A stretch of 64,000 nt of DNA from Dehalococcoidia bacterium (GCA_963662615.2 CAXXSR010000001.1:96001-160000); one strand, 5' to 3'. Counted from the first letter of the stretch, positions 1,935 through 63,928 are shown. The notes: generated from the sequence alone by a model not told the origin. Numbers and translations: made by a program.

Positions 1935-1962
1935 GCCGACTCGATGTCGGATAGCTGTGTGC
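1935..1962. repeat. 42-bp palindrome family, left-half copy
   Basis: GCCGAC TCGATG TCGGAT AGCTGT directly before the RRM gene ATG. Confidence 0.55.
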
Positions 1963-1963
1963 C

Positions 1964-2551
1964 ATGAAGCTGACTCTTGCCTACGTGTCTCCGGACACGA
2001 CGGAATTCGACGTGCTCCAGCTGTGCGAGCCGTACTCGTCGGTCCGGGATGTGCAGCTGGTCGAGTCCCTCGCGGGCGGGGGTCGGATGCTGGCGATCGT
2101 CGACTTCGCGGATGACGCCGAAGCGGCCCGGGCCATCGCCGCGCTGGACGGCACGCAATTCGCCGGGCGACCGATGCGAGTGCGAGCGGTGTCCGAGACC
2201 GACGTCCGGCCGGCTTCCCGAACGCGGCAAGGCGCGGCCCCGGCTCTCCGGGCCGACGCCGGGGCCGAGAGGGCGAGGGCCGTCCACCCTCGCGGGGAAT
2301 CAAGCGGGCGCCGACGGATCGTCACGCTGCCCGCTGGGGCGGTCGCCCGGGCGGGGCTCTACGTGATCGGAACGCTCCTCCTGATGCTTGGGTTCGGCTG
2401 CCTGGGGCTGGCGCGGGGGCTGCAGGGAGCAGGGCGACAGCTCATCCGCGCCACCCGGTGGCGACACCCGCTCGTTGCCAGCGAGGCCGGACACCAGCAA
2501 GCCGACCGAGCCCCCGACGACCGACCACACCCCGACGCCACGCCTGACTGA
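1964..2551 (+). CDS. RRM RNA-binding domain protein with C-terminal hydrophobic helix
   Basis: AIVDFADDAEAARAIAALDGTQFAGRPMRV is RRM-like; later TM-like segment LYVIGTLLLMLGFGCLGLA. Confidence 0.7.
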   Translation: MKLTLAYVSPDTTEFDVLQLCEPYSSVRDVQLVESLAGGGRMLAIVDFADDAEAARAIAALDGTQFAGRPMRVRAVSETDVRPASRTRQGAAPALRADAGAERARAVHPRGESSGRRRIVTLPAGAVARAGLYVIGTLLLMLGFGCLGLARGLQGAGRQLIRATRWRHPLVASEAGHQQADRAPDDRPHPDATPD

Positions 2552-2589
2552 GTGCTCGGCGCGTGCAGCGCACGTGTGGTAGATCAGCG

Positions 2590-2618
2590 GCTTCCCAAGC
2601 AGAGGGTCGCGGGTTCGA
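2590..2618 (+). other. tRNA-Gly(CCC) 3'-half fragment, att-like site 1
   Basis: GCTTCCCAAGCAGAGGGTCGCGGGTTCGA corresponds to anticodon loop, variable loop and T arm start; no complete cloverleaf. Confidence 0.75.
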
Positions 2619-2633
2619 CTGGCGGGCGCAAAA

Positions 2634-2675
2634 CCCGAACCTCTGTGGGATAGAGCTGTCCGAGATAAAAGTTGA
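2634..2675. repeat. 42-bp palindrome copy
   Basis: CCCGAA CCTCTG TGGGAT AGAGCT GTCCGA GATAAA AGTTGA. Confidence 0.6.
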
Positions 2676-2984
2676 TTCTCGTCTGATCGAATGCTCGGGC
2701 GCGGCAGGATCTGATCCTGGAATGCGCTCACGTCACCGCAAGGCCGGCCACGGCTTCGATTGCGACGGTGCTCAGGTCCTCGGTCGCTGCGGTGGGTGAT
2801 CGGGTCCCTCCCGAGCTTCTCGAGCATTAATCCTTCGGTCAGCAGGTATCGACGACCTATCGGGAGCGGATTCACGCCGGATTGATGTGCGCTTGCCCGG
2901 CGTACTCGGTCCTTGAGGTCGGCTTCCGTCAATCTCGACACGTAGAGAGCGAACGAGTCAGATAGCGCCTGGAACGTCAAGCGC

Positions 2985-3186
2985 CTATTCGACCGCCAGG
3001 TCTGGACCACCCGGGCCGAGCTCGCGGCGGCGATCTTCGAGTGGATCGAGGGCTGGTACAACGCGCGCCGCCGGCACACCGCGATCGGCGATCTCAGCCC
3101 GATCAACTTCGAACGCGCTCGTCAGGCCGCCGAGGATGCGGCACGATCTCTACACCCGAACAGTCCTGGAAACCGGGGCAGGCTTA
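2985..3186 (+). mobile_element. IS3-family remnant (OrfB C-terminus and right end)
   Basis: Translates LFDRQVWTTRAELAAAIFEWIEGWYNARRRHTAIGDLSPINFE; ends AACCGGGGCAGGCTTA. Confidence 0.8.
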
Positions 3187-3399
3187 GGTGCTGGGGAACC
3201 CACACCTCAGCAATATTGTCCAAGATGGGCAGGTTGCTGGGATCTCATCGAGCCCAAGAGTCTCCGCGTGTTGGAGTTGCATCGGTTTGAGCCGACCTTC
3301 AATCACCAGAACGGGAGCGGTTGGGGGCTACGAGCGATGACAGGAGCGGCGAGGCGATCTGCCACAAGGGCATTCAAGCGCGTGGCGAGGAGGATACGC

Positions 3400-4915: not shown

Positions 4916-6916
4916 TTACCCCGGGGGATCAGTATCCAAGGGCTCAACATCAAAGGTCCCGATCGCCGGGGGTCCCTCCACATCGCGCTCGAAGATCGCG
5001 GTGACCTCCCACGTCCATCCCATCCGGCGCTCATTGATGATGAAGCCGTCAGGACTATCAAAGACGTACACCGGATCTTCGCTAACTTCTTCCCCATTAA
5101 ATAGCGCTTCTTCCATCACGACTGGAAATGAAGCGGTCGCTGACTGCACCACGAGGCGATAACGTACGGCCTGCGCACAGAGACTCCACGAAAATCTCCA
5201 GATGATTCCGTCCGTGCGATCGCGGCGACCGTTGTCCAGCACGTCGCCTCGGCTAGGAGAAAGAAGTGTCGGTGCGCAACTCCTGCCTTCGTCAACTTCT
5301 AGAACCAGGAGTGCTTTGGCCGCATCTTCCGCTTGCTCAGCTCCCATCCTGAGCACCTCAGCCTGCGCTTGGGCCGCCTCAGCCACCCCTACCGCCCGCT
5401 GGGCGTCGGACCGCGCCCTATCAGCATCTTGCCACTGCCACGCCGCGAGACCCGTGAGGACGAGGCCAATAGCCAGTCCCACCACTAAGGACGCGATGCG
5501 TCTCCGAAGTCGCCGACGCGCGACCTGCTCACGCTCTTTCAGAGCCTGGCTTGCATCGAGGAAGGACCGCTCTAGCTCATCTAGCTCTGCCGGGTGCGCT
5601 GCCGACCACGCAGTCGCTTCCGCCAGCCGTTTGCCTCGTAGTAGGGCGTCCTCGTCGCTGCCCAGCCGCTGCCACTCGCGCGCCGGCCTTGCGAGCGGGT
5701 GCGTCGCTCCCGCCCGCCTCTTGCTGTCCCATGCCTCGTTGTCGGCAAGAATGGGACCGATGCAGCGGTCGTGGCTGAGCTCGTACCAACGCGTGCCCGC
5801 CCGGTACTCCGCGCGAATCAGGTGCTGTCCTTCCAGCACGTCGATGGCGGCGTTGGAGATGCCTCCGGTGGACTCCTCATCTCGGTAGACCGTGCCGCGC
5901 GTCCCCATGGTCGTGATCAGCGTGCTCCCGAACCAGCGGCGAAGCGTCGGCTCGTCCACGCTGGATGTGCCCGTCGCCGCGCCGAGAGCATCGCGGTAGA
6001 ACGTTCGCAGCGCGCGGTCAACGTCGCCAAATTCCCGCAGGTGGCCTTCGTCGATGACGGTGGTTGCGGCCGGCAAACTGGACCAGAGCGTCACGCAGAC
6101 GACCTGCAACTGCACGGGTTCGACATACGGTCCGGTCACCGCCACGGCTTCGCCACCGGCGCTGACGGCCCGCACCTGCAGCAACTCTTGGACCAAGCGT
6201 TCGGCCACGCCTGGTGCGAAGGTGCGATCGGCATCGACGAGCGGCCCTTGGACCGCCTCGAGGGCCGCCGGCTCCCGGAGCCGCTCGAGCCGAAAGCGGG
6301 TCCGCAGCCGCTCGGGTAGCTGGCGGGCAAAAGGATCGAGTTGGGCCAGGTAATCCTCACGAATGACGAAGACAACCCGCAGCAGGGGATCGGCGGCCAG
6401 CGCCGCGGCCACCTGATCGAAGAACGCGAATTGGGCGGCGGACCCGCGATCGGTGATCAGCGTGAACAGCTCTTCGAACTGGTCGAAGATGAGCGCCCGC
6501 GGTACGAGGTGCCCCTCGTCGTCGGTACCGCGCGGACGCGCCGCCAAGAAGTCCGCCAGGGTGGTGCTCATCAGGGACTCGGGTTCCGCCTCTGGGTCGA
6601 GGTGGAGCAGGGCGTTGAAAATGTAGAGATTCGTCACGCTGGCCGGATCCACTCCCTCCGGAGCGGCGCCGAGCACTCGGGCCAAGGGGAGGACATTGAA
6701 CCCGTTCCCCTGTAGCGCGGGCGCGACGCGCACATTGAAGAGCGAAGTTTTGCCCGCGCCCGACTGGGCGTAGGCGAGGACGACTGGATGGCCCCGGATC
6801 AAGGAGACGATCTCGTTGGTTTCCCGCTCCCGCCCGAAGAAACGGGCCCGGTCCGTGGCGTTGGCTTCGAACGGGCGCGGGCCGACGTCGGGATTCTGGT
6901 CGGGGGAATCAGGCAT
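4916..6916 (-). CDS. nSTAND1-type STAND NTPase with TM helix and C-terminal beta-rich domain
   Basis: GPRPF..FFGRERE, Walker A AQSGAGKTSL, IFDQFEELFT, IREDYL, YELSHD; TM segment IASLVVGLAIGLVLTGLAAW. Confidence 0.85.
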   Translation of the reverse strand: MPDSPDQNPDVGPRPFEANATDRARFFGRERETNEIVSLIRGHPVVLAYAQSGAGKTSLFNVRVAPALQGNGFNVLPLARVLGAAPEGVDPASVTNLYIFNALLHLDPEAEPESLMSTTLADFLAARPRGTDDEGHLVPRALIFDQFEELFTLITDRGSAAQFAFFDQVAAALAADPLLRVVFVIREDYLAQLDPFARQLPERLRTRFRLERLREPAALEAVQGPLVDADRTFAPGVAERLVQELLQVRAVSAGGEAVAVTGPYVEPVQLQVVCVTLWSSLPAATTVIDEGHLREFGDVDRALRTFYRDALGAATGTSSVDEPTLRRWFGSTLITTMGTRGTVYRDEESTGGISNAAIDVLEGQHLIRAEYRAGTRWYELSHDRCIGPILADNEAWDSKRRAGATHPLARPAREWQRLGSDEDALLRGKRLAEATAWSAAHPAELDELERSFLDASQALKEREQVARRRLRRRIASLVVGLAIGLVLTGLAAWQWQDADRARSDAQRAVGVAEAAQAQAEVLRMGAEQAEDAAKALLVLEVDEGRSCAPTLLSPSRGDVLDNGRRDRTDGIIWRFSWSLCAQAVRYRLVVQSATASFPVVMEEALFNGEEVSEDPVYVFDSPDGFIINERRMGWTWEVTAIFERDVEGPPAIGTFDVEPLDTDPPG

Positions 6917-7700
6917 GGGAGAAGGCCTCCCAGCGTGCACGTAACTCCCCGGCGAACTCCCGCGCGTCGCCCCAATAAGTCCGCACCTTGATCTTCTGAA
7001 TCGTGTCGAAGTACGCGTCGAGATAGCGCTGAGCGCGTTGCCGACCGTGCTCAGACGCATCCGCCGCGGGCGGCGCCAGCTGCACGGCAATGCTCGTCAT
7101 CCCCAAGCTCGCGCCCAGCGAACCGATGAGCCCGCGGAAGAGGACGCGGATGTTCCAATCTGTAAGGCTGTAGCCCACGAACAGTAGCGACGTACCGGCC
7201 AACGCCGTGCGGATTGTGGCCGGGAGCAGGTCTTGATCGTTGGAGAGGCGCACGAGGAAATCGAGGTAATCGTCCTCGGTCAGGACCAGCGACTGCGGAA
7301 GCGCATAGTGGCCGTGAAGGTGATAGACGAGCGGGGTGGCCGGACTGGGCTCGAACCCGGACGCTAAGGCAGAAGGCTGCTCCATCTCGACGAAGCGATT
7401 CCAGTGGCAGAGTTCGCGGACCGGGTCCTTCTCTCGCGCCTTGAGGGCTTCGACCATGAAATCGTCGTAGTTCGTGGTGATATAGAGGGGGAGGTTGAGG
7501 TCGGCCAGCACGCCGTGGGGCGAGTCGGCGGCGGAAAAGTCGGGCGGCTGGACGTCGCGGAATCGGCGCTGCACGTCTTCCTTGGGAAAGAGGTCGTCTT
7601 GGTCCACGGCGAGGTATTGCGCGACCCGAGCCAGGTCCTGCGAGTCTTGGAGGGGATAGCCGTGCTCCTCCGCCCACTGGCGCGCTATTTCGCGTGGGAG
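6909..7700 (-). pseudogene. SIR2-like (SIR2_2) domain protein, 5'-truncated
   Basis: YITTNYD, HLHG, LVLTEDDY and LLFVGYSL motifs; frame continues upstream (REIARQWAEEHGYP) but the N-terminal GAG motif is missing; stop overlaps the STAND ATG. Confidence 0.8.
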
Positions 7701-8626: not shown

Positions 8627-9615
8627 ATGGCGCGGAAGTATCTCCTGTCGATCGACGGTGGCGGGATCCGCGGAATCATTCCCACGGTCGTGCTAGCGAA
8701 GCTCGAAGAGCAGACGGAGAAGCCCACGCGAGAGACGTTCTCGTTTCTCGCAGGCACGTCGACGGGGTCGTTGATCGCGGGTGCCTTGGCGGCGGGGATT
8801 CCCGCCAGAGACCTCTTGACCCTCTATCGCAGCAGGGGGCCAGATATATTCAGGAGCACGCCGATCCTCGGGCAGATCCGCCGGTTCGTCGCTGGCTGGC
8901 AGTACAGCACGGACACGCTGTACGCCGTCGCGCGCGAGGCCCTCGGCCCCGCGCCGAACATTGAGCTCAACGACCTACCGGTCGATGTCTTCATCACGTC
9001 GAAGCGGGTGGCGGACGGATCGGCCTGGTATCTGGTGAAGGACAAGGATCCGGCGGGGCAGTTCAAGGGCAACTCGCGGCGAACAGGCGGGCTGCGTCTA
9101 GCGGAGTGCGTGACGGCATCGTCGGCCGCGCCTACCTACCACAAGCCGTGGACGATCCAGCACGACCCCCTCGCCGACGACGGACGAGCTCCGATCGGCG
9201 CGTTGGTGGATGGGGGCGTCGGCATCGCGCGAAACCCAGTGCTGGAAGCCTGCTTCGAGGCCTTCCACTTCACTGGTGACTACGACGAGGCTGAGACGAC
9301 CATCGTGTCGTTAGGAACCGGTTGGGCAGAGAGCCAGAAGCGCACCGGCCCGGGTGGATTCTGGAGTGGCTGACTTGGGTGTTGGGCGAGGCTCTCAGCG
9401 AGCCTGCCGAGCAGCAGACTCGCATGGTGCCACATACGTTTGAGAGGGCGACCTTCTACCGCATCGACTACCAGATGCAACGATCGATCGGTCCGGACAA
9501 GGTGAAAGAGATCGAAACGCTCGTCGGCTACGGCGAACAGCTCGCCAACCAGGTCGACTGGAAGGACATCCTGGCCGGGAAGGAGACCGTTCACTTCGTC
9601 TCCGCGCCGAAGTGA
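8627..9615 (+). pseudogene. Patatin-like phospholipase with a frameshift near 9355
   Basis: DGGGIRG, GTSTG, SSAAPTY and DGG motifs; C-terminus continues in ORF 9322-9615. Confidence 0.8.
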
Positions 9616-9980
9616 AGGTTGAGCGCGGCAGCATCGGCCTTGTATCGCGCCCTAGTGGCCCTCGCGCCGGCGTTCGGCCTGAAATCTGCGGCATGGTCAC
9701 TTCACAACTGTCCAGGCTAAGTGTCGAGATTCCAGCCTGCATTGACCAGACGGGTGCATGCCAGGTGGCTACGAGCACAGTAATGATCGAGATACGACAC
9801 TGCAGACATGTAATCGCTGTACTGGCTCACCGGCGCGCTTCATCGTCGAAGGCGCAAGGGGCTTCACTAGCCGTATCACGCTAGTACGAGACCGCACTCG
9901 CGCATCTCGATCAGTGCTCTACGAGTTCCGCACCAGGCGGGTATGCGCTGCGCAACGTCAGCTCTCTGCGGAGGGGAACC

Positions 9981-11036
9981 ATGCCTTTCTTCTACCGGCT
10001 TGACGAGTCGGATCCGGCGCTCAACGCACCCCGAACTGCGGCGAATCTCATCGATCTGCGTGTCCAGCTCGATCGCGACGTGCCCCCGAAGACCGTCCTT
10101 GAACGGCTCCTCCTGGCGACATGGAACATTCAGGCGTTTGGGACTACCAATCGCCTCGAAGAAAGCTACTGGTATATCGCAGAGATCCTGTCGCGATTCG
10201 ACCTGATCGCGATCCAAGAGATCAAAGGGGACCTCTCGGCGCTGGATCAAGTCCGCGCCCTCCTGGGGGATTGGTGGGACTACATCGTCACGGACGTGAC
10301 AGAGGGGAGCGCGGGCAACAACGAACGCCTGGGCTTCCTCTTCGACACGCGCAAGGTGGAGTTCGGTGGGATCGCTGGGGAGATCGTGCTCCCGCCGCTC
10401 AAGGACGCCAAAGGACGCTCTGTCGCACCGGATCAGATCTTTCGTACACCGTTCGTGGCCGGCTTCCGCGCCGGTTGGTTCGACTTCATGTTGGCGACGG
10501 CACACATTCGGTTCGGCAAGAACAAGCGCGCGGATCCGGCCCGGGTGATGGAGATCCGGCAGGTGGCGGATTTCTTGGCGAAGCGCGGGTCGCGAACGAG
10601 CACCTGGTCCCCAAACCTCGTTCTGCTGGGGGACTTCAATATCTTCGATGAATCCAGCCCGGCGATGGACGCGCTACTCGACGCGGGATTCACCGTCCCG
10701 CGGGCACTCTCACAGGTGCCGTCCTCGAACGTTGGAGCCCAGCCACGACGATACGACCAGATCGCGTTCCGGCTGAGCGGCCAGCCACAACTCCAGCCGA
10801 CACAGGCGGGAGTGCTGGACTACTTCGAGTCGGTCTACACGGACGACAAGTTCGGTTCCTATGCACCCGGCTTGACGAGGGCCGACGGATCGGTCCCGAC
10901 CGACAAGCGGCGCTACTACCAGAACCACTGGCGTCGTCGTGAGATGTCGGACCACCTGCTGCTGTGGGCTGAGATCCCGATCGAGTTTGCGGACCCTTAC
11001 CTGCGGAAACATGCGGACGCCGGGCCCTCCAGGTGA
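9981..11036 (+). CDS. Endonuclease/exonuclease/phosphatase (DNase I-like) family protein
   Basis: ATWNI, IAIQE, LGDFN, YDQI and MSDH motifs. Confidence 0.9.
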   Translation: MPFFYRLDESDPALNAPRTAANLIDLRVQLDRDVPPKTVLERLLLATWNIQAFGTTNRLEESYWYIAEILSRFDLIAIQEIKGDLSALDQVRALLGDWWDYIVTDVTEGSAGNNERLGFLFDTRKVEFGGIAGEIVLPPLKDAKGRSVAPDQIFRTPFVAGFRAGWFDFMLATAHIRFGKNKRADPARVMEIRQVADFLAKRGSRTSTWSPNLVLLGDFNIFDESSPAMDALLDAGFTVPRALSQVPSSNVGAQPRRYDQIAFRLSGQPQLQPTQAGVLDYFESVYTDDKFGSYAPGLTRADGSVPTDKRRYYQNHWRRREMSDHLLLWAEIPIEFADPYLRKHADAGPSR

Positions 11037-11090
11037 CGCGCGCTCGATCGCCGTCATCCCAACCCACGTGGTAGGGGGTCAAGTGTTCCG

Positions 11091-11888
11091 TCAGAGGACC
11101 GCGCCGTAGGCTTCCGTGAACGCGGCCTGCGCATAGTCGTTGGAGGCGGAGGCGAAACCCCGGTCGCCCCACGACGTCCCCCAGCTGTTGCGGACGATGA
11201 AGTGGTCCGGCGTATAGCCGACGATCGAGACGGCGTGCCCACCGCGTGCGGTGTTGGACTGGTAGACATCGAGTCGTCCCTTTGTCGCTCGTGCGCGGTC
11301 CCAGGTGCGATCGACGTTGAGACGCGCCAGGATGGGTCCCTGCTGTGCGAGCCACCGCCGCCAGTCTTGGAGATCGACGCCGAGGTTGTGATAGCTCGCG
11401 ATGCGAAGACGCGCTGCCTTGGTGTAGAAGGCGGCCACTGAGAGCTTGGCGAGCCCACCGTACAAGGGGAGATCTTCCTCAAGGACGCAGCCATACGTGC
11501 GGGCGACCGAGAGCGCGAGCTTTGTCTGCGTCCCGGCCGACTCGATAAAGGTCGTTGGGTAGGCCGTGATGTCGTCGGTTTCCTTGTTCGCCATCCAGAT
11601 GAAACGCGGTGCGGGACGGTCTCGCCCGCGGATCAGCTTCTCCTTGACGTAGTGCCAGTGCAGAACGCCGTCCGCCGCGGCGAAACCAACACACGCCCCG
11701 GTCGTGCCTTGGTTGCGTATCCGCCACCATGGCGCTCGGAGATCCCGCGCTTTGGGGATGCGGGTGCTTCTGGGCACGATCCCAGCCGATACGGCGTCGC
11801 CCAGGGTCCAATCGTTCTCCCGTCCTACGGATGAGACACAGTTGAGAACGAATTGACGGGTGCTCGGTTGCGTTCGAGCGGCGGGCAT
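11091..11888 (-). CDS. C1 (papain-like) cysteine peptidase
   Basis: NQGTTGACVGF, GGHAV and RNSWG catalytic motifs. Confidence 0.9.
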   Translation of the reverse strand: MPAARTQPSTRQFVLNCVSSVGRENDWTLGDAVSAGIVPRSTRIPKARDLRAPWWRIRNQGTTGACVGFAAADGVLHWHYVKEKLIRGRDRPAPRFIWMANKETDDITAYPTTFIESAGTQTKLALSVARTYGCVLEEDLPLYGGLAKLSVAAFYTKAARLRIASYHNLGVDLQDWRRWLAQQGPILARLNVDRTWDRARATKGRLDVYQSNTARGGHAVSIVGYTPDHFIVRNSWGTSWGDRGFASASNDYAQAAFTEAYGAVL

Positions 11889-12084
11889 CGCTGTCTCCGA
11901 TCTGTACAGCGCCAGGTAGGTGTGCCGGCAAGTCTAGCCGAAACAGTGCTCGCCAAAGAAACTCCATCAGTGACGCTTGGGCCCGGCGTTGTGAGCCGGA
12001 GGAGCGCCGACATGGACGAGCAGACGGGAGTCGCGGCGCGCGATCCGATCGCCACATCATCATCGACTCGACGGTGCTGGACAC

Positions 12085-12607
12085 AGTCGGCGGCGTAGCG
12101 ATGGACGCGGGAGTTGCCGTAGCCGTCGCTCACAAAGATGTCGCCGTTGGCCTGGGAGATGGCGCGGTCAGTGGGCTTGTTGAAGGGGTCGCCGCTCTGG
12201 GGTGGCGCCGGGTCGCCGCTGCCGAGCGTCATCACCGTCGTGCCCGCGCGGTCGGTCTTGGTCAGTTTGTGCGTGTGCACGTCCACGAGCCAGAGGTAAT
12301 CGTCGGGGTCGACGCGCACGGAGTGGGGCCAGCCGAAGCGGACACCGCGCTAGACCAGGCGGGTGACGCCATAGGGGTCGACGATCTCGTCCATGTCGCC
12401 GTGCGGCGTGTCGTTGCCCCAGTGGTCGATCATGTGGCCGTCGGCGTCGAATACCAGCATGGGCATGTTGCCCCGGTTGAAAACGTAGACGCGGTCCTGG
12501 GAGTCCACGGCGACCGCGGTAGCCTCGCGGAGCCAGAAGCCGTGTGGGATCTTGGCCCAGCCCGGTACCGGCTCGTAGGTCGTGGCGGTGGTGGGGGGTC
12601 CCGGCAT
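12085..12607 (-). pseudogene. NHL-repeat (peptidylglycine lyase-like) protein, in-frame TAG at 12350-12352 and 3'-truncated
   Basis: VAVDSQDRVYVFNRG, FNKPTD and VSDGYGNSRVH motifs. Confidence 0.8.
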
Positions 12608-12793
12608 GGTTCTCGTCCTCCCTGCTTGGTGGGCGCGCCCGTCGCTGCGCGGCTCGCTACGCAGGGTACTGCGTTCGCGCTTCTTGGAAACCGGCGGATC
12701 GAAGGCGCCCTGGACCAGAGCCGCGGAGGGAGGCGCCTCTCAGTCCCTGGCGCGACGATGGGTCTGGCGCGCGGGGCGTGTTCGGTCACTCTG

Positions 12794-12835
12794 TTGGATC
12801 GGATTTCGTACAGACCTGTCCGCCATAGGATTGGA
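12794..12835. repeat. 42-bp palindrome copy
   Basis: TTGGAT CGGATT TCGTAC AGACCT GTCCGC CATAGG ATTGGA. Confidence 0.65.
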
Positions 12836-13020
12836 CACAGTGTCGGCGGAAACGGCGCCGCTTCCAGAACCGCACTCCGTCGTGCCTGAGTTGGAACTGG
12901 ATGTTGGACCGCGTGGTGCGCTACCCCGACCGTGTGCCCAGGTTGGGGGCACAGCGCTTACGCTCTTGCTGGGACTCTGCACGGTCTCCACGACTGCCCA
13001 GCGGGCGCCCTTTCCAAAGC

Positions 13021-13062
13021 TGAATTTCTATCCGGGACCGGACTGGTCGATATTGACTCCGA
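13021..13062. repeat. 42-bp palindrome copy (degenerate)
   Basis: TGAATT TCTATC CGGGAC CGGACT GGTCGA TATTGA CTCCGA. Confidence 0.5.
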
Positions 13063-13200
13063 CTCGCCGTCCATGTACCGGCACTCCCAAATAACTCGGA
13101 TACGCCGCTACGCTCAAGGGGGCGCACGGCGCAACGGGTATCGGGGGGGCATGGCGAGTCCCACGGCCCCTGCCACGATTCGAGAGGGGAGCGAACGCGG

Positions 13201-13668
13201 ATGCAATGCCCGCGGGACGGCGCGGAGCTCCGGGTGGAGCATGTGCACGACATTGAGGTGGACCACTGCCCGCAATGCAACGGCCGCTGGCTGGACCACC
13301 ACGAGTTGGACGAACTCGAAGCGACGCGTGCCGGTGAGGATGAACGGCGCGGGATGGTCCAGTACGCCAAGCGCGACTCAGAGCTGGACTGCCCAATTTG
13401 CGGCGAGCGCATGACAGCATTCAACTATCGCGCCTACGACTTGGAGCTCGACACGTGCCGGAGCGAGCACGGCTTCTGGCTGGACGCCGGCGAGGACGGC
13501 CGGGTACGGGACGTCATCGACGAGCGGGTCCGCGGGCTGCAGCGCGCCGCCTCCGCGGAGGCGGCCTGGGCCGGCTTCCTCGATGGGTTGCGCGGTGGCG
13601 GTTCGGGCGGCGGTTCCGGCGGCGTCTGGAGCAGGGTGCGGTCATTCTTTGGCGGCCGTCGGCGCTAA
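13201..13668 (+). CDS. zf-TFIIB-like double zinc-ribbon protein
   Basis: CPRD, CPQCNGRWLD, CPIC and HGFWLDAGE motifs. Confidence 0.85.
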   Translation: MQCPRDGAELRVEHVHDIEVDHCPQCNGRWLDHHELDELEATRAGEDERRGMVQYAKRDSELDCPICGERMTAFNYRAYDLELDTCRSEHGFWLDAGEDGRVRDVIDERVRGLQRAASAEAAWAGFLDGLRGGGSGGGSGGVWSRVRSFFGGRRR

Positions 13669-13800
13669 AGCGAGAGGCATCGACGCCAAGCCCCCGAGAA
13701 CGGGATCCTCATGAGTCATTTCGGACCAGCACATTCCGCGGGCGGCTTTCCCAGGGCGCGCTCCATTTCGGACAGCCGCAGGGGGTCGATCATTTCAGAG

Positions 13801-13842
13801 TCGAACTCTGTCTCGGACAGGACTGTTCGACATTGAGACCGA
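13801..13842. repeat. 42-bp palindrome copy
   Basis: TCGAAC TCTGTC TCGGAC AGGACT GTTCGA CATTGA GACCGA, followed by flank CACGCCGTCG. Confidence 0.8.
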
Positions 13843-13918
13843 CACGCCGTCGCAGCGTGTACCCTCCTCAAAGTCTCACCGGGCCGACCTGGGAGTTTGA
13901 TCGAGCGGACGGCGCTCA

Positions 13919-15370: not shown

Positions 15371-15476
15371 GGCGGCGTACGGGCATCGACGTCAGTGGGT
15401 CCTGCGACAGCGATCCGCTCTAGCCGACCGCGGGCGGCGTTAAAGGGAGCGGCGTGCGGTGTACATGGGTCGGATG

Positions 15477-15518
15477 TCGGACTCTATCTCGGACAGATCT
15501 GTCGGAGATAGAGTCCGA
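15477..15518. repeat. 42-bp palindrome, near-perfect copy (a degenerate copy follows at 15563-15604)
   Basis: TCGGAC TCTATC TCGGAC AGATCT GTCGGA GATAGA GTCCGA; one mismatch between arms; flank GACGCCGTCG. Confidence 0.9.
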
Positions 15519-15686
15519 GACGCCGTCGGCGGGGAGTCCCCGCACCACCGGGGCCTCCAAGGTCCTGTTCTCAGTCGGACATGCCACCCCGACATCGAGT
15601 CCAGTTGAACGGATCTTGACCGGCTCTGGTGCACGAGTTCATAATCCCGACGACGACCGCGGCGCAGACCCCTCAAACGAGGGGAG

Positions 15687-16061
15687 CTAGCTGTCGTGAA
15701 AAAACACTTGGACTAGCGGACTCCTCTGGACCCAACTGTTCTGTAGGTCCTTGTCAGTCACACTGTCGGCGAGCGTGGTCATGCCGCGCAGGATCCGGAG
15801 CCTCTCTTCGGGATCGATCACCGGGATTGCCGTGGCAGGCAGGTTTGCCTGCGCCGACCGCTTGAGATGGAACGTAAAGTTCGGATTGGCAAGAAGGTTC
15901 GCATACCAACTTCGATGTCCCGGACTCCCCGTGATGTAATAGCGCTGCGCCACGCGATGGAACCAGATCTCGATACGGCGGGGCTCTCCGCTCCGTCGTC
16001 CGGTGGTCGTGATATCTATCAGCCGGTCTTCGTGGAGCGCCGCTCTGATCGCGTCACCCAT
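15687..16061 (-). CDS. Deazaflavin (F420)-dependent nitroreductase family protein
   Basis: ITTTGRRSGEPR and WYANLLANP motifs. Confidence 0.85.
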   Translation of the reverse strand: MGDAIRAALHEDRLIDITTTGRRSGEPRRIEIWFHRVAQRYYITGSPGHRSWYANLLANPNFTFHLKRSAQANLPATAIPVIDPEERLRILRGMTTLADSVTDKDLQNSWVQRSPLVQVFFHDS

Positions 16062-16105
16062 GGTCGTCTCCCATGCCAGCCGTTGTAGTCTATTAGGTGC
16101 GCGTA

Positions 16106-16147
16106 CCCGACTCTAGGTCGGATTGATCTATCCGAAGAAGACTCGGA
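16106..16147. repeat. 42-bp palindrome copy
   Basis: CCCGAC TCTAGG TCGGAT TGATCT ATCCGA AGAAGA CTCGGA. Confidence 0.65.
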
Positions 16148-16177
16148 CGCAGCGGCCTGGCGCTCCTCGTGGGCCCT

Positions 16178-16300
16178 GGCTGCCGGCGGCGATCAGCCGA
16201 TGCACGCCGCTCTCCAAAGGCGATCTCTATCTCGGTCAGCACTGTTCTGCACCGCGTCGAGAACAGGACTGTGCGAGATCCAATATGGCGTAGTTTTCCG
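16178..16300 (+). repeat. ~125-bp repeat containing the 71-bp long palindrome (16219-16289)
   Basis: Homologous to 57258-57380 and partly to 53838-53917. Confidence 0.8.
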
Positions 16301-16301
16301 C

Positions 16302-16615
16302 GGGGACGGGGACGGCCCGTTGTTCCTCACGATCGACCGGCCCCAGAAACCGCGCGGGCCGATGAACAAGTACCTTCTCGGGACCCTGTTTACCCGGCTT
16401 GGGGAGCGGGCCGGCGTGCATGCCACCCCGGTTCGCTTCCGGCACACCTGCGCGACCTGGGCGATCGAGAACCACGCCGGGAACTCGACGTGCAGTTCCT
16501 GCTCGGCCACTCCCCGTCGGCGATGGTGCGCCGGTACTCCGCCACCTATGATGCGACGAAGGCCGCCGAGGCGCAGGCAGCGTTCACCCCGGCAGCGCGC
16601 CTGCTCGGAGCGTGA
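16302..16615 (+). pseudogene. Tyrosine recombinase C-terminal relic 2
   Basis: GPLFLT...RFRHTCATWAIENH / ELDVQFLLGHSPSAMVRRYSATYDATKA; frameshifted. Confidence 0.85.
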
Positions 16616-16699
16616 TCGCTCGGGAATGGCATCTATACTTGGCCGCAGCGTGAGAAGATCCGTGACGATGCTGCTGCCGCAGTGGAGAGAGGGCAAGCC

Positions 16700-17533: not shown

Positions 17534-17781
17534 GCCGGGCGCTTTTCGCCGCCTGCGCCCCGCGGGGTTTTGGGCCGCCACACCACCTGGGAACGGGAAA
17601 GGCGCTGTCGGTTCATCGAAGAGATCGTGCCGGAGTGTTTCCAGGCCATCACCGATCACTGTCTCTGCGAACGCGGCGGCAGAACTCGCGCGGGTCAACG
17701 CCTACGCTATAAGCACCATCGCGCTGACGGACTGTCCCTCGGCGGCGAATTCCATCCATCGGGCGGACCGGAACGATATTC

Positions 17782-19608: not shown

Positions 19609-19687
19609 TCCAGTCGGACTGACCCCAGCGGTGATCGTTGGTCAACTCAGGTACGGCTCATCAGGTAAGCGTGGTCGCGATGCAAAG

Positions 19688-19729
19688 TCCGACGCTACGC
19701 CGGCCAGATCTGTCCGACATACAGTTCAG
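19688..19729. repeat. 42-bp palindrome copy
   Basis: TCCGAC GCTACG CCGGCC AGATCT GTCCGA CATACA GTTCAG. Confidence 0.65.
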
Positions 19730-20724: not shown

Positions 20725-20782
20725 GGCTAGTCGGCCAGTAGATCCGCGAGCGGCGGCCTGTCCGAGCACGAAGGAGTGAACG

Positions 20783-21886: not shown

Positions 21887-21892
21887 CTGGCA

Positions 21893-27288: not shown

Positions 27289-27330
27289 TCGGACTCAGTG
27301 CCGAAGAGATCTGTCCGGCGTAGAATCGGA
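27289..27330. repeat. 42-bp palindrome copy
   Basis: TCGGAC TCAGTG CCGAAG AGATCT GTCCGG CGTAGA ATCGGA. Confidence 0.7.
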
Positions 27331-32394: not shown

Positions 32395-32673
32395 ACGTCC
32401 GGCCGTTGGCCAGACGGTGGTGCACCGCGACCGCGGGACCCCGTACACGGCGTGGGCGTTCGGCCAGCGCCTGCGGGCGGCGGGCCTGCTCGGTTCGATG
32501 GGCCGAGTTCGCCTCGGCGATCTTTGAGTGGAACGAGGCCTGGTATCACCCGCGTCGTCGGCACACCGCCATCGACGATCACAGCCGCGTCGAATACGAA
32601 CGCCTTCACGAAGCCGCGGAGGATGCGGCATGTTCACCACACCCGAGCAGTGCGGAAAACCGGGGCAGGCTCA
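32395..32673 (+). mobile_element. IS3-family remnant with an internal deletion
   Basis: VVHRDRGTPYTAWAFGQRLRAAGLLGSMGRV / AIFEWNEAWYHPRRRH; right end GGGGCAGGCTCA matches the 3170-3186 end. Confidence 0.8.
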
Positions 32674-32706
32674 ATGTGGAACAGTCCTGTCCGACACAGA
32701 GATCAC
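32674..32706. repeat. 42-bp palindrome copy joined to the IS3 end
   Basis: ATG TGGAAC AGTCCT GTCCGA CACAGA GATCAC. Confidence 0.65.
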
Positions 32707-33419: not shown

Positions 33420-33461
33420 TCGGACTCGATGTCGAACGGTCCTGTGCGAGATGGAGTTCGC
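33420..33461. repeat. 42-bp palindrome copy
   Basis: TCGGAC TCGATG TCGAAC GGTCCT GTGCGA GATGGA GTTCGC; conserved flank on the left (GCGGCGTC). Confidence 0.75.
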
Positions 33462-34092: not shown

Positions 34093-34134
34093 CCCGACTC
34101 GATGTCGAACAGAGCTGTCCGACATAGGATCGGA
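34093..34134. repeat. 42-bp palindrome copy
   Basis: CCCGAC TCGATG TCGAAC AGAGCT GTCCGA CATAGG ATCGGA. Confidence 0.8.
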
Positions 34135-39843: not shown

Positions 39844-39885
39844 TCGAACTCTATGTCGGACAGACCTGTCCGACATAGAATCCGA
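39844..39885. repeat. 42-bp palindrome, near-consensus copy
   Basis: TCGAAC TCTATG TCGGAC AGACCT GTCCGA CATAGA ATCCGA, followed by flank GACGCCGTCG. Confidence 0.9.
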
Positions 39886-43448: not shown

Positions 43449-43452
43449 CGCG

Positions 43453-47290: not shown

Positions 47291-47332
47291 TGAATCTCTA
47301 TTTCGGACAGACCTGTCCGACATAGGATGGGG
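47291..47332. repeat. 42-bp palindrome copy
   Basis: TGAATC TCTATT TCGGAC AGACCT GTCCGA CATAGG ATGGGG. Confidence 0.8.
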
Positions 47333-47932: not shown

Positions 47933-47974
47933 AGCCATCCAGAGTCGGACAGATCTGTCCGACATAGAGTTCGG
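47933..47974. repeat. 42-bp palindrome copy
   Basis: AGCCAT CCAGAG TCGGAC AGATCT GTCCGA CATAGA GTTCGG. Confidence 0.8.
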
Positions 47975-51671: not shown

Positions 51672-52049
51672 TGGGCAGCTCGATCTCCATGGTGGTGAGG
51701 GGTGCAGATGCCCCGAGGGTCGCATAGGCCTCGCGATCGGGCACCATACGATCCTATTGGAGCGTTGAACCGGCTGGTATGAGGAGTGTTCCTAGTGCGG
51801 TGTGCGCTATCCCTCCAGTAAGCAGTGAAGGAGGTCTCAATCAGACGGGAAGCGTTGCGCACCGGTCGGCCGCTCTGGTGTGGTGTCTCAAAACTCCACT
51901 CCCACCTGCGAGCGTAGGTGATTGACCCGATGAGGAACTTGACGCTTCGCAAACGCCGGACCGCATGAATGAAAATCCGCTGGTCATGCCATCGCGGGTC
52001 CAGACGAGTCCGCCGCGAGAAGGCTAGCGACGCCGGGGGTCGTCATTTT

Positions 52050-52210
52050 CTCCGCCTCCGCCACACCTTCGCGATCTGGGCCATCGAGAACCACACCCGC
52101 GAGTTGGACGTGCAGTTCCTTCTCGGCCCCTCCCTTCGGCGATGGTGCGGCGCTACTCGGCGACGTACGACGCCGCCAAGGCGGCCGCAGCGCACGCGGC
52201 CTTTAGCACC
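52050..52210 (+). pseudogene. Tyrosine recombinase C-terminal relic 4
   Basis: LRHTFAIWAIENHTRELDVQFLLG / AMVRRYSATYDAAKAAAAHAAFS. Confidence 0.85.
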
Positions 52211-52487
52211 CTCCTCCATATCGCCACCGACGGGCCGATCCAACGAGCATGGACGCCGCCATCGCGGTGGACCTCGCGGCTACGGTGCAGTCCCTGATGC
52301 TCGGCACGATCTACATCTTCGTGGGGTCGGTTCTGAGGGGTGCTGCTGGGCGTCGCCCGTATCGTGGTCCTCATCGCCGATCTCGGTCTCGTCCGGGTCG
52401 CGATCTGCGTCGGCCTGGCGGTGCTGCGGCAGTCGGTGCGTGCGCTCCCCACGGGGCAGACCCCGTCACATGATCTCCGCCGGCACC

Positions 52488-53846: not shown

Positions 53847-53917
53847 GGCGAACTCTATCTCGCTCCGCACTGTTCTGCCCCGCGTCGAGAACAGTCCTGT
53901 CCGAAATAGGGTTCGCC
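53847..53917. repeat. 71-bp long-form palindrome
   Basis: GGCGAACTCTATCTCG...ACTGTTCT-N11-AGAACAGT...CGAAATAGGGTTCGCC. Confidence 0.8.
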
Positions 53918-54106: not shown

Positions 54107-54185
54107 CGCCAAGGCGGCCGCAGCGCACGCCGCGTTTAGCCCCGCCGCCCGCTTACTCGCAACCGAGGCCAGCGCGGCCGGCTAA
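54107..54185 (+). pseudogene. Tyrosine recombinase extreme 3' relic 5
   Basis: AKAAAAHAAFSPAARLLATEASAAG*. Confidence 0.7.
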
Positions 54186-54191
54186 GCGCCG

Positions 54192-54209
54192 GCTTCCCAA
54201 GCAGAGGGT
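54192..54209 (+). other. tRNA-Gly(CCC) fragment, att-like site 3, 6 bp after the relic-5 stop
   Basis: GCTTCCCAAGCAGAGGGT, identical to site 1. Confidence 0.7.
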
Positions 54210-56188: not shown

Positions 56189-56230
56189 CCGAATTGGATC
56201 TCGGAGAGGTCTGTACGAAATTCAATCCGA
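56189..56230. repeat. 42-bp palindrome copy
   Basis: CCGAAT TGGATC TCGGAG AGGTCT GTACGA AATTCA ATCCGA. Confidence 0.65.
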
Positions 56231-57052: not shown

Positions 57053-57257
57053 ACACGAGCGCCCGCAGAATCTCCGACAGGCGCCGCAGAGCGACCGAGA
57101 TGTGCCCTTCCTCCGAGATGAATTGGGCTTCGCAGTGGGGAATGGCCGCGGCCACAGCGCGCCCAATCCGAATCGGGACGTGTACGTTGCGGCCGCCGTG
57201 CCAGAGCAGCACGGGGTCGGCCGCTGCCGTCCGACATCGAGCCCGGTACGCGCCGCC

Positions 57258-57459: not shown

Positions 57460-57501
57460 TCGGACCCTATGTCGGACGGTATTGTCCGACGTAGAGTTCG
57501 A
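57460..57501. repeat. 42-bp palindrome copy
   Basis: TCGGAC CCTATG TCGGAC GGTATT GTCCGA CGTAGA GTTCGA. Confidence 0.85.
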
Positions 57502-61491: not shown

Positions 61492-61761
61492 CCTCGCACC
61501 CTCTTCCTACCTGCCCGTGCCGATCGGGCTCGCGCACAGGATCGCCCCCGCCCGCCGTCCCACGCAACCCCCACCCCGCGACCCCCGCTGCCGCCAACGC
61601 CGAGAGCCCGTCTGCTTCGTCGTCGTCCGAGAAACCGCCGCTCCCTGAGGGAGGGAGAGTTGCGGGAGCCTCGGGAATAGCTGGTTCGCCCGTCGGCGCC
61701 TCCAGCGTCGTATCAGCGCTGCGATCGCGTGCGCTTGCCGGATCGATTTCATGATGCCAAG

Positions 61762-61803
61762 TTCGACCCTTTGTCGGACAGATCCGTCCGACCTAGAATC
61801 CTG
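61762..61803. repeat. 42-bp palindrome copy
   Basis: TTCGAC CCTTTG TCGGAC AGATCC GTCCGA CCTAGA ATCCTG. Confidence 0.75.
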
Positions 61804-61868
61804 CACAGCGCACCGTCGGGTAGGCGTGTGGGCTCTAGAGCCGGACGTTGCGCTTGCCGACTCCTGAA

Positions 61869-61910
61869 TCGGACTCAATGTCGGACGGACGTGTTCGACA
61901 TCGAGTGCAA
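61869..61910. repeat. 42-bp palindrome copy
   Basis: TCGGAC TCAATG TCGGAC GGACGT GTTCGA CATCGA GTGCAA. Confidence 0.75.
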
Positions 61911-61968
61911 GTCGACGCGAGCCGGGGGGTCGGATCCGCGTTCGCGGAGCTTCCAGAAAGGTGCACGA

Positions 61969-62769
61969 ATGATCGCAGACCTGACAGGGAAGAAGGCGCT
62001 GGTCACCGGCGCCGGATCGGGGATTGGCAAAGGCATCGCGGAGGTCTTGGCCGCTCAGGGCGCCTCGGTGGTGGTCGCGGACCTGAACGAGGCTTCCGCC
62101 GAAGCCGTGGCCAGAGGCCTTCCCGATGGCCGCGCGCTGGCGCTCCATCTCGACGTCGGCGATCCCGCATCGGTCGAGGAAGCAGTGGAGCGAATGCGCT
62201 CCGAATGGGGCGCGCTGGATATCCTGGTCAACAACGCGGGCGTCCGCTCCGCGAGCGGCGAGCCGCGGGCGCTGGACCAAGAGGAGGACTGGGACGCCAC
62301 GCTGAACGTGAACCTGCGCGGTACGGTGCGATGCTGCAACGCCGTCGTGCCGCACATGCGCGCTCGTCGCTCCGGCAAGATCATTAATATCGCCTCCATG
62401 GCGGGACATGCCAGCCGCCGCACCGGCGCAGCGTACGGCGTGAGCAAGGCGGCGGTCCTTCGCTACACGAAGGGGCTGGCCGCGGAGCTGGCTACCGACG
62501 ACATCAATGTGAACGCGATCTGTCCAGGAGCGGTCTGGACGCCTTTGCAGGAGACGGGTGAGCGGGCGAGGGCCGGACTCGACGCCGGCGTGCCCAGCGC
62601 CGAAGTCGAGAAAGGCTTCATTGAGCGGTACAAGGCCGTTATCCCGCTGGGACGCGCGCAGACCGTCGAGGACATCGGCAAGGTGGCAGCGTTCCTGGCG
62701 TCGGACGATGCGCGCAACATCACCGGTCAGTGCATCCACGTCGACGGCGGGGCAATTCTGCGCGACTGA
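61969..62769 (+). CDS. Short-chain dehydrogenase/reductase (SDR)
   Basis: TGAGSGIG, NNAG and YGVSK motifs. Confidence 0.93.
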   Translation: MIADLTGKKALVTGAGSGIGKGIAEVLAAQGASVVVADLNEASAEAVARGLPDGRALALHLDVGDPASVEEAVERMRSEWGALDILVNNAGVRSASGEPRALDQEEDWDATLNVNLRGTVRCCNAVVPHMRARRSGKIINIASMAGHASRRTGAAYGVSKAAVLRYTKGLAAELATDDINVNAICPGAVWTPLQETGERARAGLDAGVPSAEVEKGFIERYKAVIPLGRAQTVEDIGKVAAFLASDDARNITGQCIHVDGGAILRD

Positions 62770-63097
62770 GCCGCGGCGGCTGGATCAGATCGTGAGCGGA
62801 TGGGTTGGGGCCGGCCGCCTGAAGTCGAACTCCATTGCAGCAATGACCGAGGGAACCGCCGGCGGCGTCGAACAGGCGGACTTAGGGAACGCGCCACTCG
62901 AACGCGCGCGTGGTGTCGAAGAGGGCTCTCGGACAGCAAGCTCAGTTCAAAGCCGGCCTCGTGAGCGGTGCGCAAAAGGCGAATTCGTTGACCGTGTCGC
63001 GTAGACGCGCGTTGGCGACTCTGCAGGTGCTGCACCTGGGCATTGGCGGCGCAACCGACAAGGTCGGGACGCACTGAAGGCCTCTGGACCTCTCTGG

Positions 63098-63736
63098 CTA
63101 TTCGGCCTTCCCCGCGCGCGGGGCCAGGGCGTTCCATACATCCCCCAGGGCGTAGACTTGCTTGAACGTCTGAGAGACTCCCTGCCACATCTCCTCCCGC
63201 GCCCGGTCAGCTCCTCCCTCGTCGCCAGCGGCCAGGGCCAGTTTGAGCTGGGTGGAAATCACCTCCTGCCTTTGTGCGGCTTCGCGCGCAGCTTTGGCCG
63301 CGGACTGGGCCGCGGCGACGAAACGGTCGATCAGGGTGTCCACGGGCGTCTGCGTATCGGTTTCAACATCGTAGGCAGGGGAGGGCCTGAAGCGGGTGGG
63401 GTGGCGGCTGCCATCCTCATTGCGACCGGTGTGGGTTGGCTGGATGTGGGGGGTGACCGACAGGTACATGATCATGGGTTCACTGCCTGGGTTCCGCACC
63501 TGGTGGGGCTCGTCGACCAGGGCGACACACAGTTGCCCCGGACCCAGCTCGGCTTCTTCGCCCGCGATTTTGAAGTGGGCTCTGCCCTGCAGGATCAGGA
63601 AGATCTCGTGACCCAGGTCGTGACTATGCAGGTCGCCCACCTGTCCAGGCTCATAGCGAAAAAACCGGGAGCGAATCTGCGGGGTGACCAAGATATTGCG
63701 GCTGTCGCGCTTTGAGTCGAAGACTTGAATAGGCAT
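63098..63736 (-). CDS. Cupin domain protein
   Basis: HSHDLGHE and DEPHQVRN motifs. Confidence 0.85.
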   Translation of the reverse strand: MPIQVFDSKRDSRNILVTPQIRSRFFRYEPGQVGDLHSHDLGHEIFLILQGRAHFKIAGEEAELGPGQLCVALVDEPHQVRNPGSEPMIMYLSVTPHIQPTHTGRNEDGSRHPTRFRPSPAYDVETDTQTPVDTLIDRFVAAAQSAAKAAREAAQRQEVISTQLKLALAAGDEGGADRAREEMWQGVSQTFKQVYALGDVWNALAPRAGKAE

Positions 63737-63827
63737 GCTTCTTCTCCCTCTGAGTCGTCCGGCTCGTCCATCTTAGGCCGACGCCAGCGCGGTTCTGAGC
63801 CTGCCCCGGTCCCCCGGAACGTTCGCG

Positions 63828-63928
63828 TCTCGAGATCATGCCGCAAGTCCTGTCCGAGATACAGTTCACCTTGGGAACACGCGGTCGCCAGGCAGGGTGG
63901 GATCCAGCCTGTCCCACATAGAGTCCTT
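63828..63928. repeat. Two partial (right-half) palindrome copies
   Basis: AGTCCT GTCCGA GATACA GTTCAC (63846-63869) and CAGCCT GTCCCA CATAGA GTCCTT (63905-63928). Confidence 0.55.

Follow-up and report, generated by a model that had tools for sequence, protein, structure and literature searches.

The window analysed here, a 64,000-nucleotide stretch of a Dehalococcoidia genome (G000, contig C1, positions 96001-160000), carries part of a dispersed family of 42-base palindromic repeats, and our analysis confirms that this family is real. The genome contains 72 two-armed copies, 66 of which (92%) are concentrated in six zones with a combined length of 201 kb (7.6% of the sequence), and among the genomes searched the family is private to this lineage and was not found elsewhere. 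The best explanation, to which we give a probability of roughly 0.4, is an orphan, non-autonomous interspersed palindromic repeat of the repetitive extragenic palindromic (REP), bacterial interspersed mosaic element (BIME) or miniature inverted-repeat transposable element (MITE) kind, which would be private to the lineage, would have spread locally and would now be decaying. The repeat looks more like a decaying selfish repeat than like a working gene-cassette switch.

Detection and anatomy of the repeat family

The assembly measures 2.66 Mb in two contigs (C1 and C2), with 68.3% G+C and a completeness of 93.6%; gene calls across it are crude open reading frame (ORF) calls based on the G+C content of third codon positions (GC3). 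A sequence-only reading of the window had described 23 copies of a consensus built from four hexamer boxes. That consensus is present in the family, but it is too strict as a search pattern, since the claimed copies carry 2-20 differences from it over 40 positions. Searching for it with up to three mismatches returned 2 window sites (0 in 100 shuffles), and the exact-consensus search was dropped in favour of nhmmer and weight-matrix scans. A hidden Markov model built from 12 window copies matched 102 merged loci genome-wide, 76 of them at E ≤ 0.01. With a weight matrix of the 20-nt half-site, hereafter the arm, a threshold of 16 bits gave 167 matches in the genome and 4 in a shuffled genome, and a threshold of 18 bits gave 126 and 0, respectively.

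The arm geometry is strict. The 234 arm matches at 13 bits or more include 58 head-to-head pairs, every one at an offset of exactly 22 nt, and each other offset up to 200 was seen at most three times. The asserted spacing without indels therefore stands for the arm offset, although 1-bp deletions occur in a small number of copies, among them C1:161343 and C1:1978177. The 72 two-armed copies are those whose weaker arm reaches at least 5 bits, and 19 strong one-armed copies were found besides them. All 23 copies claimed in the window turned out to be members of the family. Nineteen are two-armed, with both arms at 5.8 bits or more, against a genome 99.9th percentile of 3.2 bits, and four are one-armed (starting at 1935, 57205, 63828 and 63887); two more had been overlooked, one with both arms at 16220 and one with a single arm near 53875.

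Aligning 65 copies gives the consensus TCGGACTCTATGTCGGACAGAnCTGTCCGACATAGAGTCCGA, and the positions kept in at least 90% of copies are G15, A17, G20, C23, T24, T26 and C28. Conservation falls from the centre outwards. When measured on the partner arms of the 126 anchors at 18 bits or more, which avoids detection bias, the match to the consensus is 80% in the inner 8 nt, 65% in the "spacer" and 62% in the outer box. The four hexamer boxes can thus be seen in the consensus, but they are not the units of conservation, and the suggestion that the outer boxes are accessory sites is left unsupported, as they are kept no better than the spacers. The central dinucleotide falls largely into three classes, AC/GT (23 copies), AT (20) and GA/TC (13), which together account for 56 of the 72 copies. 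Divergence is considerable: copies match the consensus at 30.7 of 40 positions and one another at 27.5 of 42 on average, the best pair is identical at 40 of 42 bases, and only six pairs reach 38 or more.

The flanks behave as mosaic modules, mostly 20-35 bp long where they are common to several copies. The one-sided flank (G/C)ACGCCGTCG noted in the first description was recovered at 13801, 15477 and 39844, and its relatives occur on about 18 of some 170 arm flanks genome-wide. An outer flank family of the form sAyGCCGTCG, on about 18 arms, supplies a third GTCG that continues the 12-bp step; other families are CTTTGg/c (about 12 arms), TTCAAGG (about 8 arms) and smaller ones. Twelve pairs of flanks agree at 17 or more of 22 bases; in ten of them the partner flank is unrelated (6-12 of 22), and the remaining two represent both sides of one duplicated copy. 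Copies also combine arms of different kinds. The copy at C1:130093 has its left arm and 440 bp in common with C1:1978158, and its right arm and 21 bp in common with C2:13801, so that the three can be written as A+B, A+C and D+B, respectively. Over the family, left and right arms vary almost independently (association of variants 12.48 against 12.30±0.21, not significant). This near-independence fits recombination, and it fits star-like decay equally well.

The earlier proposal of a duplex element conserved in sequence, as opposed to a hairpin, agrees with the variation among copies, which reveals no compensatory pairing. Across 65 copies, 72.7% of cells form a standard pair, compared with 72.8±0.7 in 500 shuffles, and the covariation score is 0.178 against 0.177 when shuffled. 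A separate count over 72 copies found 871 Watson-Crick cells of 1368 (861.6±11.3 expected) and 58 double changes across the arms (54.8±5.7 expected). When 12 window copies were folded as single-stranded DNA, three outdid every one of 200 shuffles (z-scores from -3.6 to -7.1); of the other nine, three were matched by 7-13 of 200 shuffles and six by 28-169 of 200. Rfam has no match in the window, and none of the eight terminator-like sites in window positions 12000-31999 coincides with a copy. The lack of covariation, the weak folding and the absence of Rfam and terminator matches together indicate that a hairpin function is not maintained.

The repeat was sought widely outside this genome. A profile search of 30 genomes of the same family gave 0 matches against 145 strand hits in G000, and the motif was not found, at up to three mismatches in 24 nt, in 40 relatives or, at up to three mismatches, in 400 genomes drawn from the phylum. 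An exact, degenerate 22-nt core, which occurs eight times in G000, gave only single chance matches in unrelated records of genome and metagenome contig collections; five of these records were read back, and the rest of the motif is absent from them. The same core has no match in viral contigs, and a 67-bp copy has none in a plasmid collection. These comparisons cover genomes that include no second species of the genus, and the public collections may leave out G000 itself. A literature string search for the core motif returned only unrelated primer and vector matches among the matches listed.

Plastic zones, gene placement and the resident recombinases

The distribution over the genome is far from uniform. 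The six zones are C1:53-165 kb, C1:1975-2008 kb, C2:0-33 kb, C2:298-310 kb, C1:748-756 kb and C1:1197-1200.5 kb, and they also hold 15 of the 19 one-armed copies. The three large zones have a coding density of 74-78%, compared with 84-86% for whole contigs, a mean GC3 of 0.81 against 0.84, and a G+C content of 65.7-66.6%. They contain integrase copies and fragments, IS481-like elements, gene fragments and many patches that are 72-99.8% identical to DNA elsewhere in the genome. The IS481-like copies (rve_3 + HTH_32) at C1:81700-82900, C1:59512-60575 and C1:2004081-2005142 are diverged and end in sequences of the type TGTGCCGGCCCAAAAC; the relative G009 also has copies, at 85% identity.

Within the zones, placement is neutral with respect to genes. 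Sixty-one of the 72 copies lie outside ORF calls; of the 11 inside them, six fall within the first quarter of probably over-long ORFs. The 61 intergenic copies are divided among tandem (31), convergent (15) and divergent (15) gene pairs, where about 33, 11 and 17 are expected from intergenic base pairs; placement is proportional to intergenic space, with no bias towards promoters or terminators. The intervals between neighbouring copies are bimodal. Of 74 intervals, 33 are shorter than 260 bp and gene-free, and they occur within clusters of two to five copies spaced 17-250 bp apart; among the 41 long intervals, 18 contain one or two called genes and the rest none or 3-10, on both strands. The description of the copies as module boundaries is therefore borne out insofar as they are mostly intergenic, but it says little beyond that, with only 18 of 41 long intervals holding one or two genes.

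The proposed link to a recombinase-rich part of the genome is correct, as intact Xer-like recombinases and their fragments occupy the same zones. Four intact paralogs encode tyrosine recombinases of 315-326 amino acids and are 82-98% identical in DNA over about 1.13-1.2 kb; with six fragments and one partial copy, all eleven members of this family lie inside zones. The proteins are generic Xer-like enzymes, scoring about 145 bits on XerC/XerD models whose cut-offs are near 330, and their nearest solved structure is the XerC-like protein 4a8e. They are not IntI, since the integron-integrase model TIGR02249 gives 63-65 bits, against a cut-off of 265, over the N-terminal half only. The 3' part of tRNA-Lys(UUU) lies upstream of each intact recombinase, and the complete tRNA gene is at C2:c32188-32263. 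Because C1 ends in the same 6,678 bp with which C2 begins, the four intact genes and the partial one form one co-oriented tandem array of about 58 kb, which begins at tRNA-Lys and spans C2:6623-32263 and C1:1987149-2007983. The zone recombinases are thus ordinary island integrases that target a tRNA gene and have an attachment context of their own.

Co-occurrence with an intact recombinase holds in the zones of this genome but fails outside it. The same recombinase family is present, at 81-84% amino-acid identity, in four relatives (G004, G008, G009 and G015), in which a 19-nt core pattern with three mismatches has 0-3 matches, compared with 136 in G000 and 0-1 in controls. No analogous palindrome family was found around the integrases of two of these relatives (60 kb in G009 and 40 kb in G008). 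A nuclease or transposase partner was also sought among 18 unannotated proteins of the zones with a relaxed Pfam scan, which gave nothing usable.

We then come to duplication breakpoints, which are not enriched at copies. Ends of duplications (at least 200 bp, at least 85% identity) fell within 30 bp of a copy in 6 of 39 cases against 5.3 expected under an intergenic null (P=0.45). A naive count, 19 ends within 60 bp against 8.5±2.7 expected, lost its enrichment under the same null. Rearrangement at the sites was also sought in Logan contigs from four studies, where all eight copies in window positions 9000-28999 were crossed colinearly with the reference; this test is weak, as contigs drop rare variants. 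Apparent contig joints (15518>27307, 15520>19706 and others) had sides of only 21-31 nt and were rejected as cross-mapping of other palindrome loci, because the 40-nt insert of the best-supported joint is the spacer of a palindrome pair at C2:305.17 kb. With breakpoints not enriched, short intervals abundant and eight copies colinear in contigs, the reading of the copies as cassette boundaries gets no support from these tests; the ten of 12 similar flank pairs that match on one side only speak in its favour.

From C1:128665 to C1:130134, patches that derive from C1:1469 kb and C1:1748-1750 kb are interleaved with copies of the repeat. For the pair of copies at 84387 and 87308, homology reaches the outer edge of the palindrome and does not end at its centre. 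In G009, the genes for BipA (92% DNA identity) and a DEAD-box helicase (90%) are 3.4 kb apart, whereas in G000 they are separated by 49 kb that hold about 27 copies. BipA/TypA (window 17646-19610) and the helicase (C1:62966-64499) form small conserved islands in accessory DNA, and they are oriented to each other differently in G000 and G009. The BipA homology stops 78 bp before the copy at 19688, and the best match of the next gene is elsewhere in G004. A clean insertion site was sought in G009 but not obtained, because homology stops at gene borders on both sides.

Origin of the repeat

Our favoured explanation of a locally spread and decaying repeat would involve three steps. An enzyme that is no longer recognisable in the genome would have recognised the central 16-18 bp (CGGACAG-NN-CTGTCCG) as duplex DNA. 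This enzyme would have copied the unit of about 42 bp, with variable outer modules, into nearby intergenic DNA, a "local hopping" that would have been confined to a plastic compartment of tRNA-linked integrase arrays, IS elements, paralog patches and pseudogenes. The copies would since have decayed arm by arm. They would be present at the edges of gene blocks because they sit in the intergenic DNA of a repeatedly rearranged region, and occasional recombination between copies may add to this. The explanation is supported by the restriction of the family to one lineage, the neutral placement relative to genes, the BIME-like clusters, the mosaic flank modules, the old and decayed copies, the independence of the arms and the one-armed remnants in the zones. 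The lack of structural variation at eight copies in four studies and the failure of the integrase-family link outside G000 support it as well.

Several observations weigh against it. Neither the centre-high gradient nor the dominance of three central dinucleotide classes is predicted by neutral decay, and both are consistent with a site on which selection still acts. With 92% of its copies in 7.6% of the genome, the family is also confined to a degree unusual among REP-type families. Neither an empty site nor a recent identical copy that would show movement was found, and no target-site duplication, in the form of a direct repeat, is visible in the flanks of copies. Searches for a partner were negative: a Y1/REP-associated tyrosine transposase (RAYT; PF01797) has 0 matches at E ≤ 0.01 in G000, where control genomes match; no gene or unit convincingly bounded by solo arms as terminal repeats was found, in either arrangement; and the IS481-like elements, considered as an autonomous partner, were rejected, their ends being a different inverted repeat. 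Finally, a paralog at C1:89222-90485, comprising a whole gene with its untranslated flanks, is 92% identical to C1:1925091-1926352 and ends 17 bp and at most 28 bp from the copies on either side, and its chromosomal twin has no copies. More interesting readings are kept alive by three results, namely a conservation that peaks at the centre, the predominance of three centre types and the extreme degree of confinement.

Judged by their defining features, the element lies outside the REP/RAYT, attC, pdif and MITE families. REP/BIME elements and REPINs mobilised by RAYT transposases are described in two reports (PMC3116915, PMC3337134). The present repeat resembles REP and BIME elements as a short imperfect palindrome that is extragenic, lineage-specific and present in dozens of copies, and it shares with BIMEs the clusters with short linkers (33 of 74 intervals) and the mosaic combinations. 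Unlike in REP/RAYT systems, no RAYT gene was found and the stem is not kept by compensatory change; the consensus has no tip of the GTAG/CTAC type, the copies are not spread over the whole chromosome, and each arm is a direct hexamer repeat and not itself a palindrome as in a REPIN doublet. The sequence-only reading had held that a uniform distribution, a RAYT gene or compensatory pairing without box conservation would mark an ordinary REP or RNA hairpin; on these grounds of its own, the REP or hairpin alternative is not established either. MITEs are similar in being small, non-coding, intergenic inverted repeats that arise by a copy-number burst in one lineage, but here there is no visible target-site duplication, no autonomous partner and no internal segment, with only 2 bp between the arms.

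Integron attC sites are imperfect palindromes in cassette arrays with an R''-L''-L'-R' box layout and a GTTRRRY core. Our repeats likewise form imperfect palindromes with a four-box layout, crowded into an array of about 100 kb of miscellaneous genes; unlike in integrons, there is no IntI, gene orientation is mixed, blocks hold 0-10 genes and the sites are clustered. Moreover, the conservation resides in sequence and not in structure, and the consensus lacks the GTTRRRY core. pdif sites have two different 11-bp arms around 6 bp. The element shares with them the many inverted-arm sites between accessory blocks, the plastic compartment and the Xer-type recombinases alongside, but it is 42 bp long, with symmetric arms and a conserved centre. 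Compared with the pdif sites and dif modules of Acinetobacter plasmids (PMC6449649, PMC13141974), no module is shown to move here, the recombinase family occurs elsewhere without the site, and breakpoints are not enriched.

Among the other explanations, one that we regard as unlikely gives the copies an operator or insulator function, exerted through a DNA-binding protein that is specific to the plastic zones. This protein would sit on the central inverted repeat as a dimer or as a dimer of dimers, making weaker contacts further out, and the transcription of accessory genes would be repressed or bracketed, as by an island-wide repressor with many sites. Conservation in sequence without covariation is consistent with this, as are the strict arm spacing, the confinement to accessory zones and the highest conservation at symmetric central positions, in a centre-high gradient that holds on arms unused for detection; several sites per intergenic region could also permit cooperative binding. 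However, 15 of the 61 intergenic copies lie between convergent genes, placement mirrors intergenic space and not the promoters of a regulon, and no promoter-like match coincides with a copy in window positions 12000-31999. Many copies are too degenerate for such a role or are one-armed, no candidate regulator was identified, and the neighbouring genes have no common theme. In one duplicated block, the palindrome is more diverged (about 76%, by reading) than its flanks (87-90%).

Somewhat less likely still is the model originally proposed, in which the copies are tyrosine-recombinase sites, with inverted core arms round a short centre, at which modules are inserted, excised and shuffled as in pdif systems and integrons. 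In its favour are the four intact Xer-like paralogs and the seven fragments or partial copies in the same zones, the arms that travel with adjacent flanks, and the copies with arms of different kinds. The copies also bracket the paralog at C1:89222-90485 exactly where the homology with its twin ends, segments of different chromosomal origin alternate with copies from C1:128665 to C1:130134, and BipA and the helicase, neighbours in G009, are far apart in G000 with some 27 copies between them. Yet the recombinases have their own tRNA-Lys attachment context and are generic Xer-like enzymes, and four relatives carry the family without the motif. Neither the breakpoint counts nor the contigs of the four studies, whose apparent joints are cross-mapping, favour the model; the homology at 84387/87308 runs to the outer edge of the palindrome and not to its centre; 33 of the 74 "modules" are shorter than 260 bp; and the polarity of copies is mixed. 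The supposed recombinase cores around a 6-bp spacer are unsupported, with G20 and C23 among the best conserved positions and a centre dinucleotide that differs between copies. Conserved central bases are unlike a recombinase overlap region.

A related and more doubtful version is that the palindromes are the joints of a lineage-private system of gene capture and shuffling, as recombinase targets or as abutted element ends. Copies or fragments of chromosomal genes would be inserted and reordered, the candidates being the same paralog and the patches between C1:128665 and C1:130134. If this were true, a compartment of about 200 kb would have been built around the once-adjacent core genes for BipA and the DEAD-box helicase, independently of IntI and of RAYT.

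It is improbable, and more so than the preceding versions, that each palindrome consists of two abutted transposon ends tipped by TG…CA (…GTCGGACA / G-NN-C / TGTCCGAC…). What separates one palindrome from the next would in that case be interior DNA of head-to-tail units, each inserted next to an existing end, and the subterminal GTCCGA boxes at 12-bp steps would be putative transposase-binding sites. Elements of the IS3, IS30 and IS481 types typically have TG…CA tips, and typically only a short spacer separates their ends where these abut. Conservation peaks at the putative tips and drops inward into each unit, arms travel with the flank of their own side, the third GTCG box continues the 12-bp step in about 18 flanks, and one-armed copies could be array ends. 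Against this, no transposase gene is so bounded, no clear isolated unit has outward non-element DNA, the IS481-like copies have other ends, the short segments between palindromes share no interior sequence, and there are no recent copies. A hairpin role, whether in RNA or in single-stranded DNA and whether in termination, in stabilisation or as a substrate of the REP type, is largely refuted and very improbable, for although the consensus is a near-perfect palindrome and three of 12 window copies fold far better than shuffles, six of those folded are equalled or beaten by 28-169 of 200 shuffles, no covariation, Rfam match or coincident terminator-like site was found, and 15 copies lie between divergent genes.

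If the repeat is a decaying selfish element, as we favour, it offers a clean example of a family confined to a plastic compartment, which it could usefully mark in a lineage that has been little studied. If a protein still recognises the copies, a possibility hinted at by the well-kept centre, they would point to an undescribed island-wide regulator, or to a mechanism of gene shuffling outside the integron and Xer/dif families.

Copies and neighbouring features in the window

In window coordinates, and with the scores of the left and right arms in bits in brackets, the first copy is the one-armed 1935..1976 (23.1 / -16.3), which has the left arm only. The two-armed copy 2634..2675 (10.4 / 19.8), whose flank was inspected, lies beside a tRNA-like fragment: positions 2570-2633, which directly abut it, look by eye like the 3' part of a tRNA with a T-arm-like GGGTTCGA, but ARAGORN called no tRNA in the window, this stretch included. 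A similar stretch, CTTCCCAAGCAGAGG, sits 3' of the integrase at C2:6623-7603. Two-armed copies follow at 12794..12835 (17.1 / 23.4), of a variant subfamily with a left arm of the GTACGA-AATCCG type, at 13021..13062 (7.2 / 16.5), which is weak, and at 13801..13842 (26.4 / 26.5), which has the CACGCCGTCG flank. The copy 15477..15518 (30.7 / 26.3), with the GACGCCGTCG flank, lies between convergent genes and folds at -18.4 kcal/mol. Next are the degenerate two-armed copy 15563..15604 (10.4 / 11.4) and the two-armed copies 16106..16147 (17.4 / 17.4) and 16220..16261 (18.1 / 5.8), the last of which is the overlooked one.

The two-armed copy 78 bp past the end of the BipA homology with G009 is 19688..19729 (12.6 / 26.3), and another is 27289..27330 (17.6 / 24.4). 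The two-armed copy 32665..32706 (16.2 / 20.6) lies beside a luciferase-like monooxygenase fragment; it is followed by two-armed copies at 33420..33461 (24.4 / 19.4) and 34093..34134 (24.7 / 27.7), each arm of the latter having a flank in common with a different other copy. The best copy of the genome is 39844..39885 (33.1 / 32.5). Its right flank matches the region 3' of the integrase at C1:1987149-1988096.

Further along are a two-armed copy at 47291..47332 (22.1 / 20.8), one with a weak left arm at 47933..47974 (5.8 / 30.2), and the overlooked one-armed or composite copy at 53875..53916 (-8.7 / 25.2). The two-armed copy 56189..56230 (17.5 / 23.5), again of the variant subfamily, lies 25 bp from the end of the homology of an msrA paralog. 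The copy 57205..57246 (-16.1 / 17.7) has the right arm alone, and 57460..57501 (24.6 / 26.9) is two-armed and lies between divergent genes. A pair of two-armed copies 107 bp apart is formed by 61762..61803 (23.2 / 17.3) and 61869..61910 (26.7 / 19.4), and the last two copies, 63828..63869 (-19.7 / 24.3) and 63887..63928 (-25.8 / 21.1), are both one-armed, with the right arm. Sequence comparison also places three fragments of the Xer-like integrase family in the window, at 1490..1725 (+ strand), 16296..16609 (+ strand) and 52052..52211; the first is given as context for the repeat.

Other features of the window concern sequences outside the palindrome family. Positions 25968-26104, about 135 bp, are 89-93% identical to single sites in G004 and G009 with unconserved surroundings; they could be a small gene or an RNA, and have no Rfam match. 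A repeat of about 100 bp at 54108-54209 has at least six counterparts in G009, at 92-96% identity, and integrase fragments adjoin several of these; the family of this repeat, unlike the palindrome, is common to different genera. The 1.9 kb at 23526-25415 (C1:119526-121415), carrying a FAD-binding oxidoreductase and an aldo-keto reductase fragment, are 99.8% identical to C1:1591990-1593879 and represent a very recent internal duplication. As regards the replicon, the only strong dnaA match is on the small contig, at C2:407705-408178, and the GC skew of C1 changes sign so many times that origin and terminus cannot be placed from skew alone. An ORF of 1160 amino acids at 48243-51725 has no Pfam match even at E ≤ 0.05. 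At 4916-7090, a 724-amino-acid nSTAND1 NTPase lies near a patatin-like phospholipase and a protein of the endonuclease/exonuclease/phosphatase family, a neighbourhood that may consist of defence-type genes.

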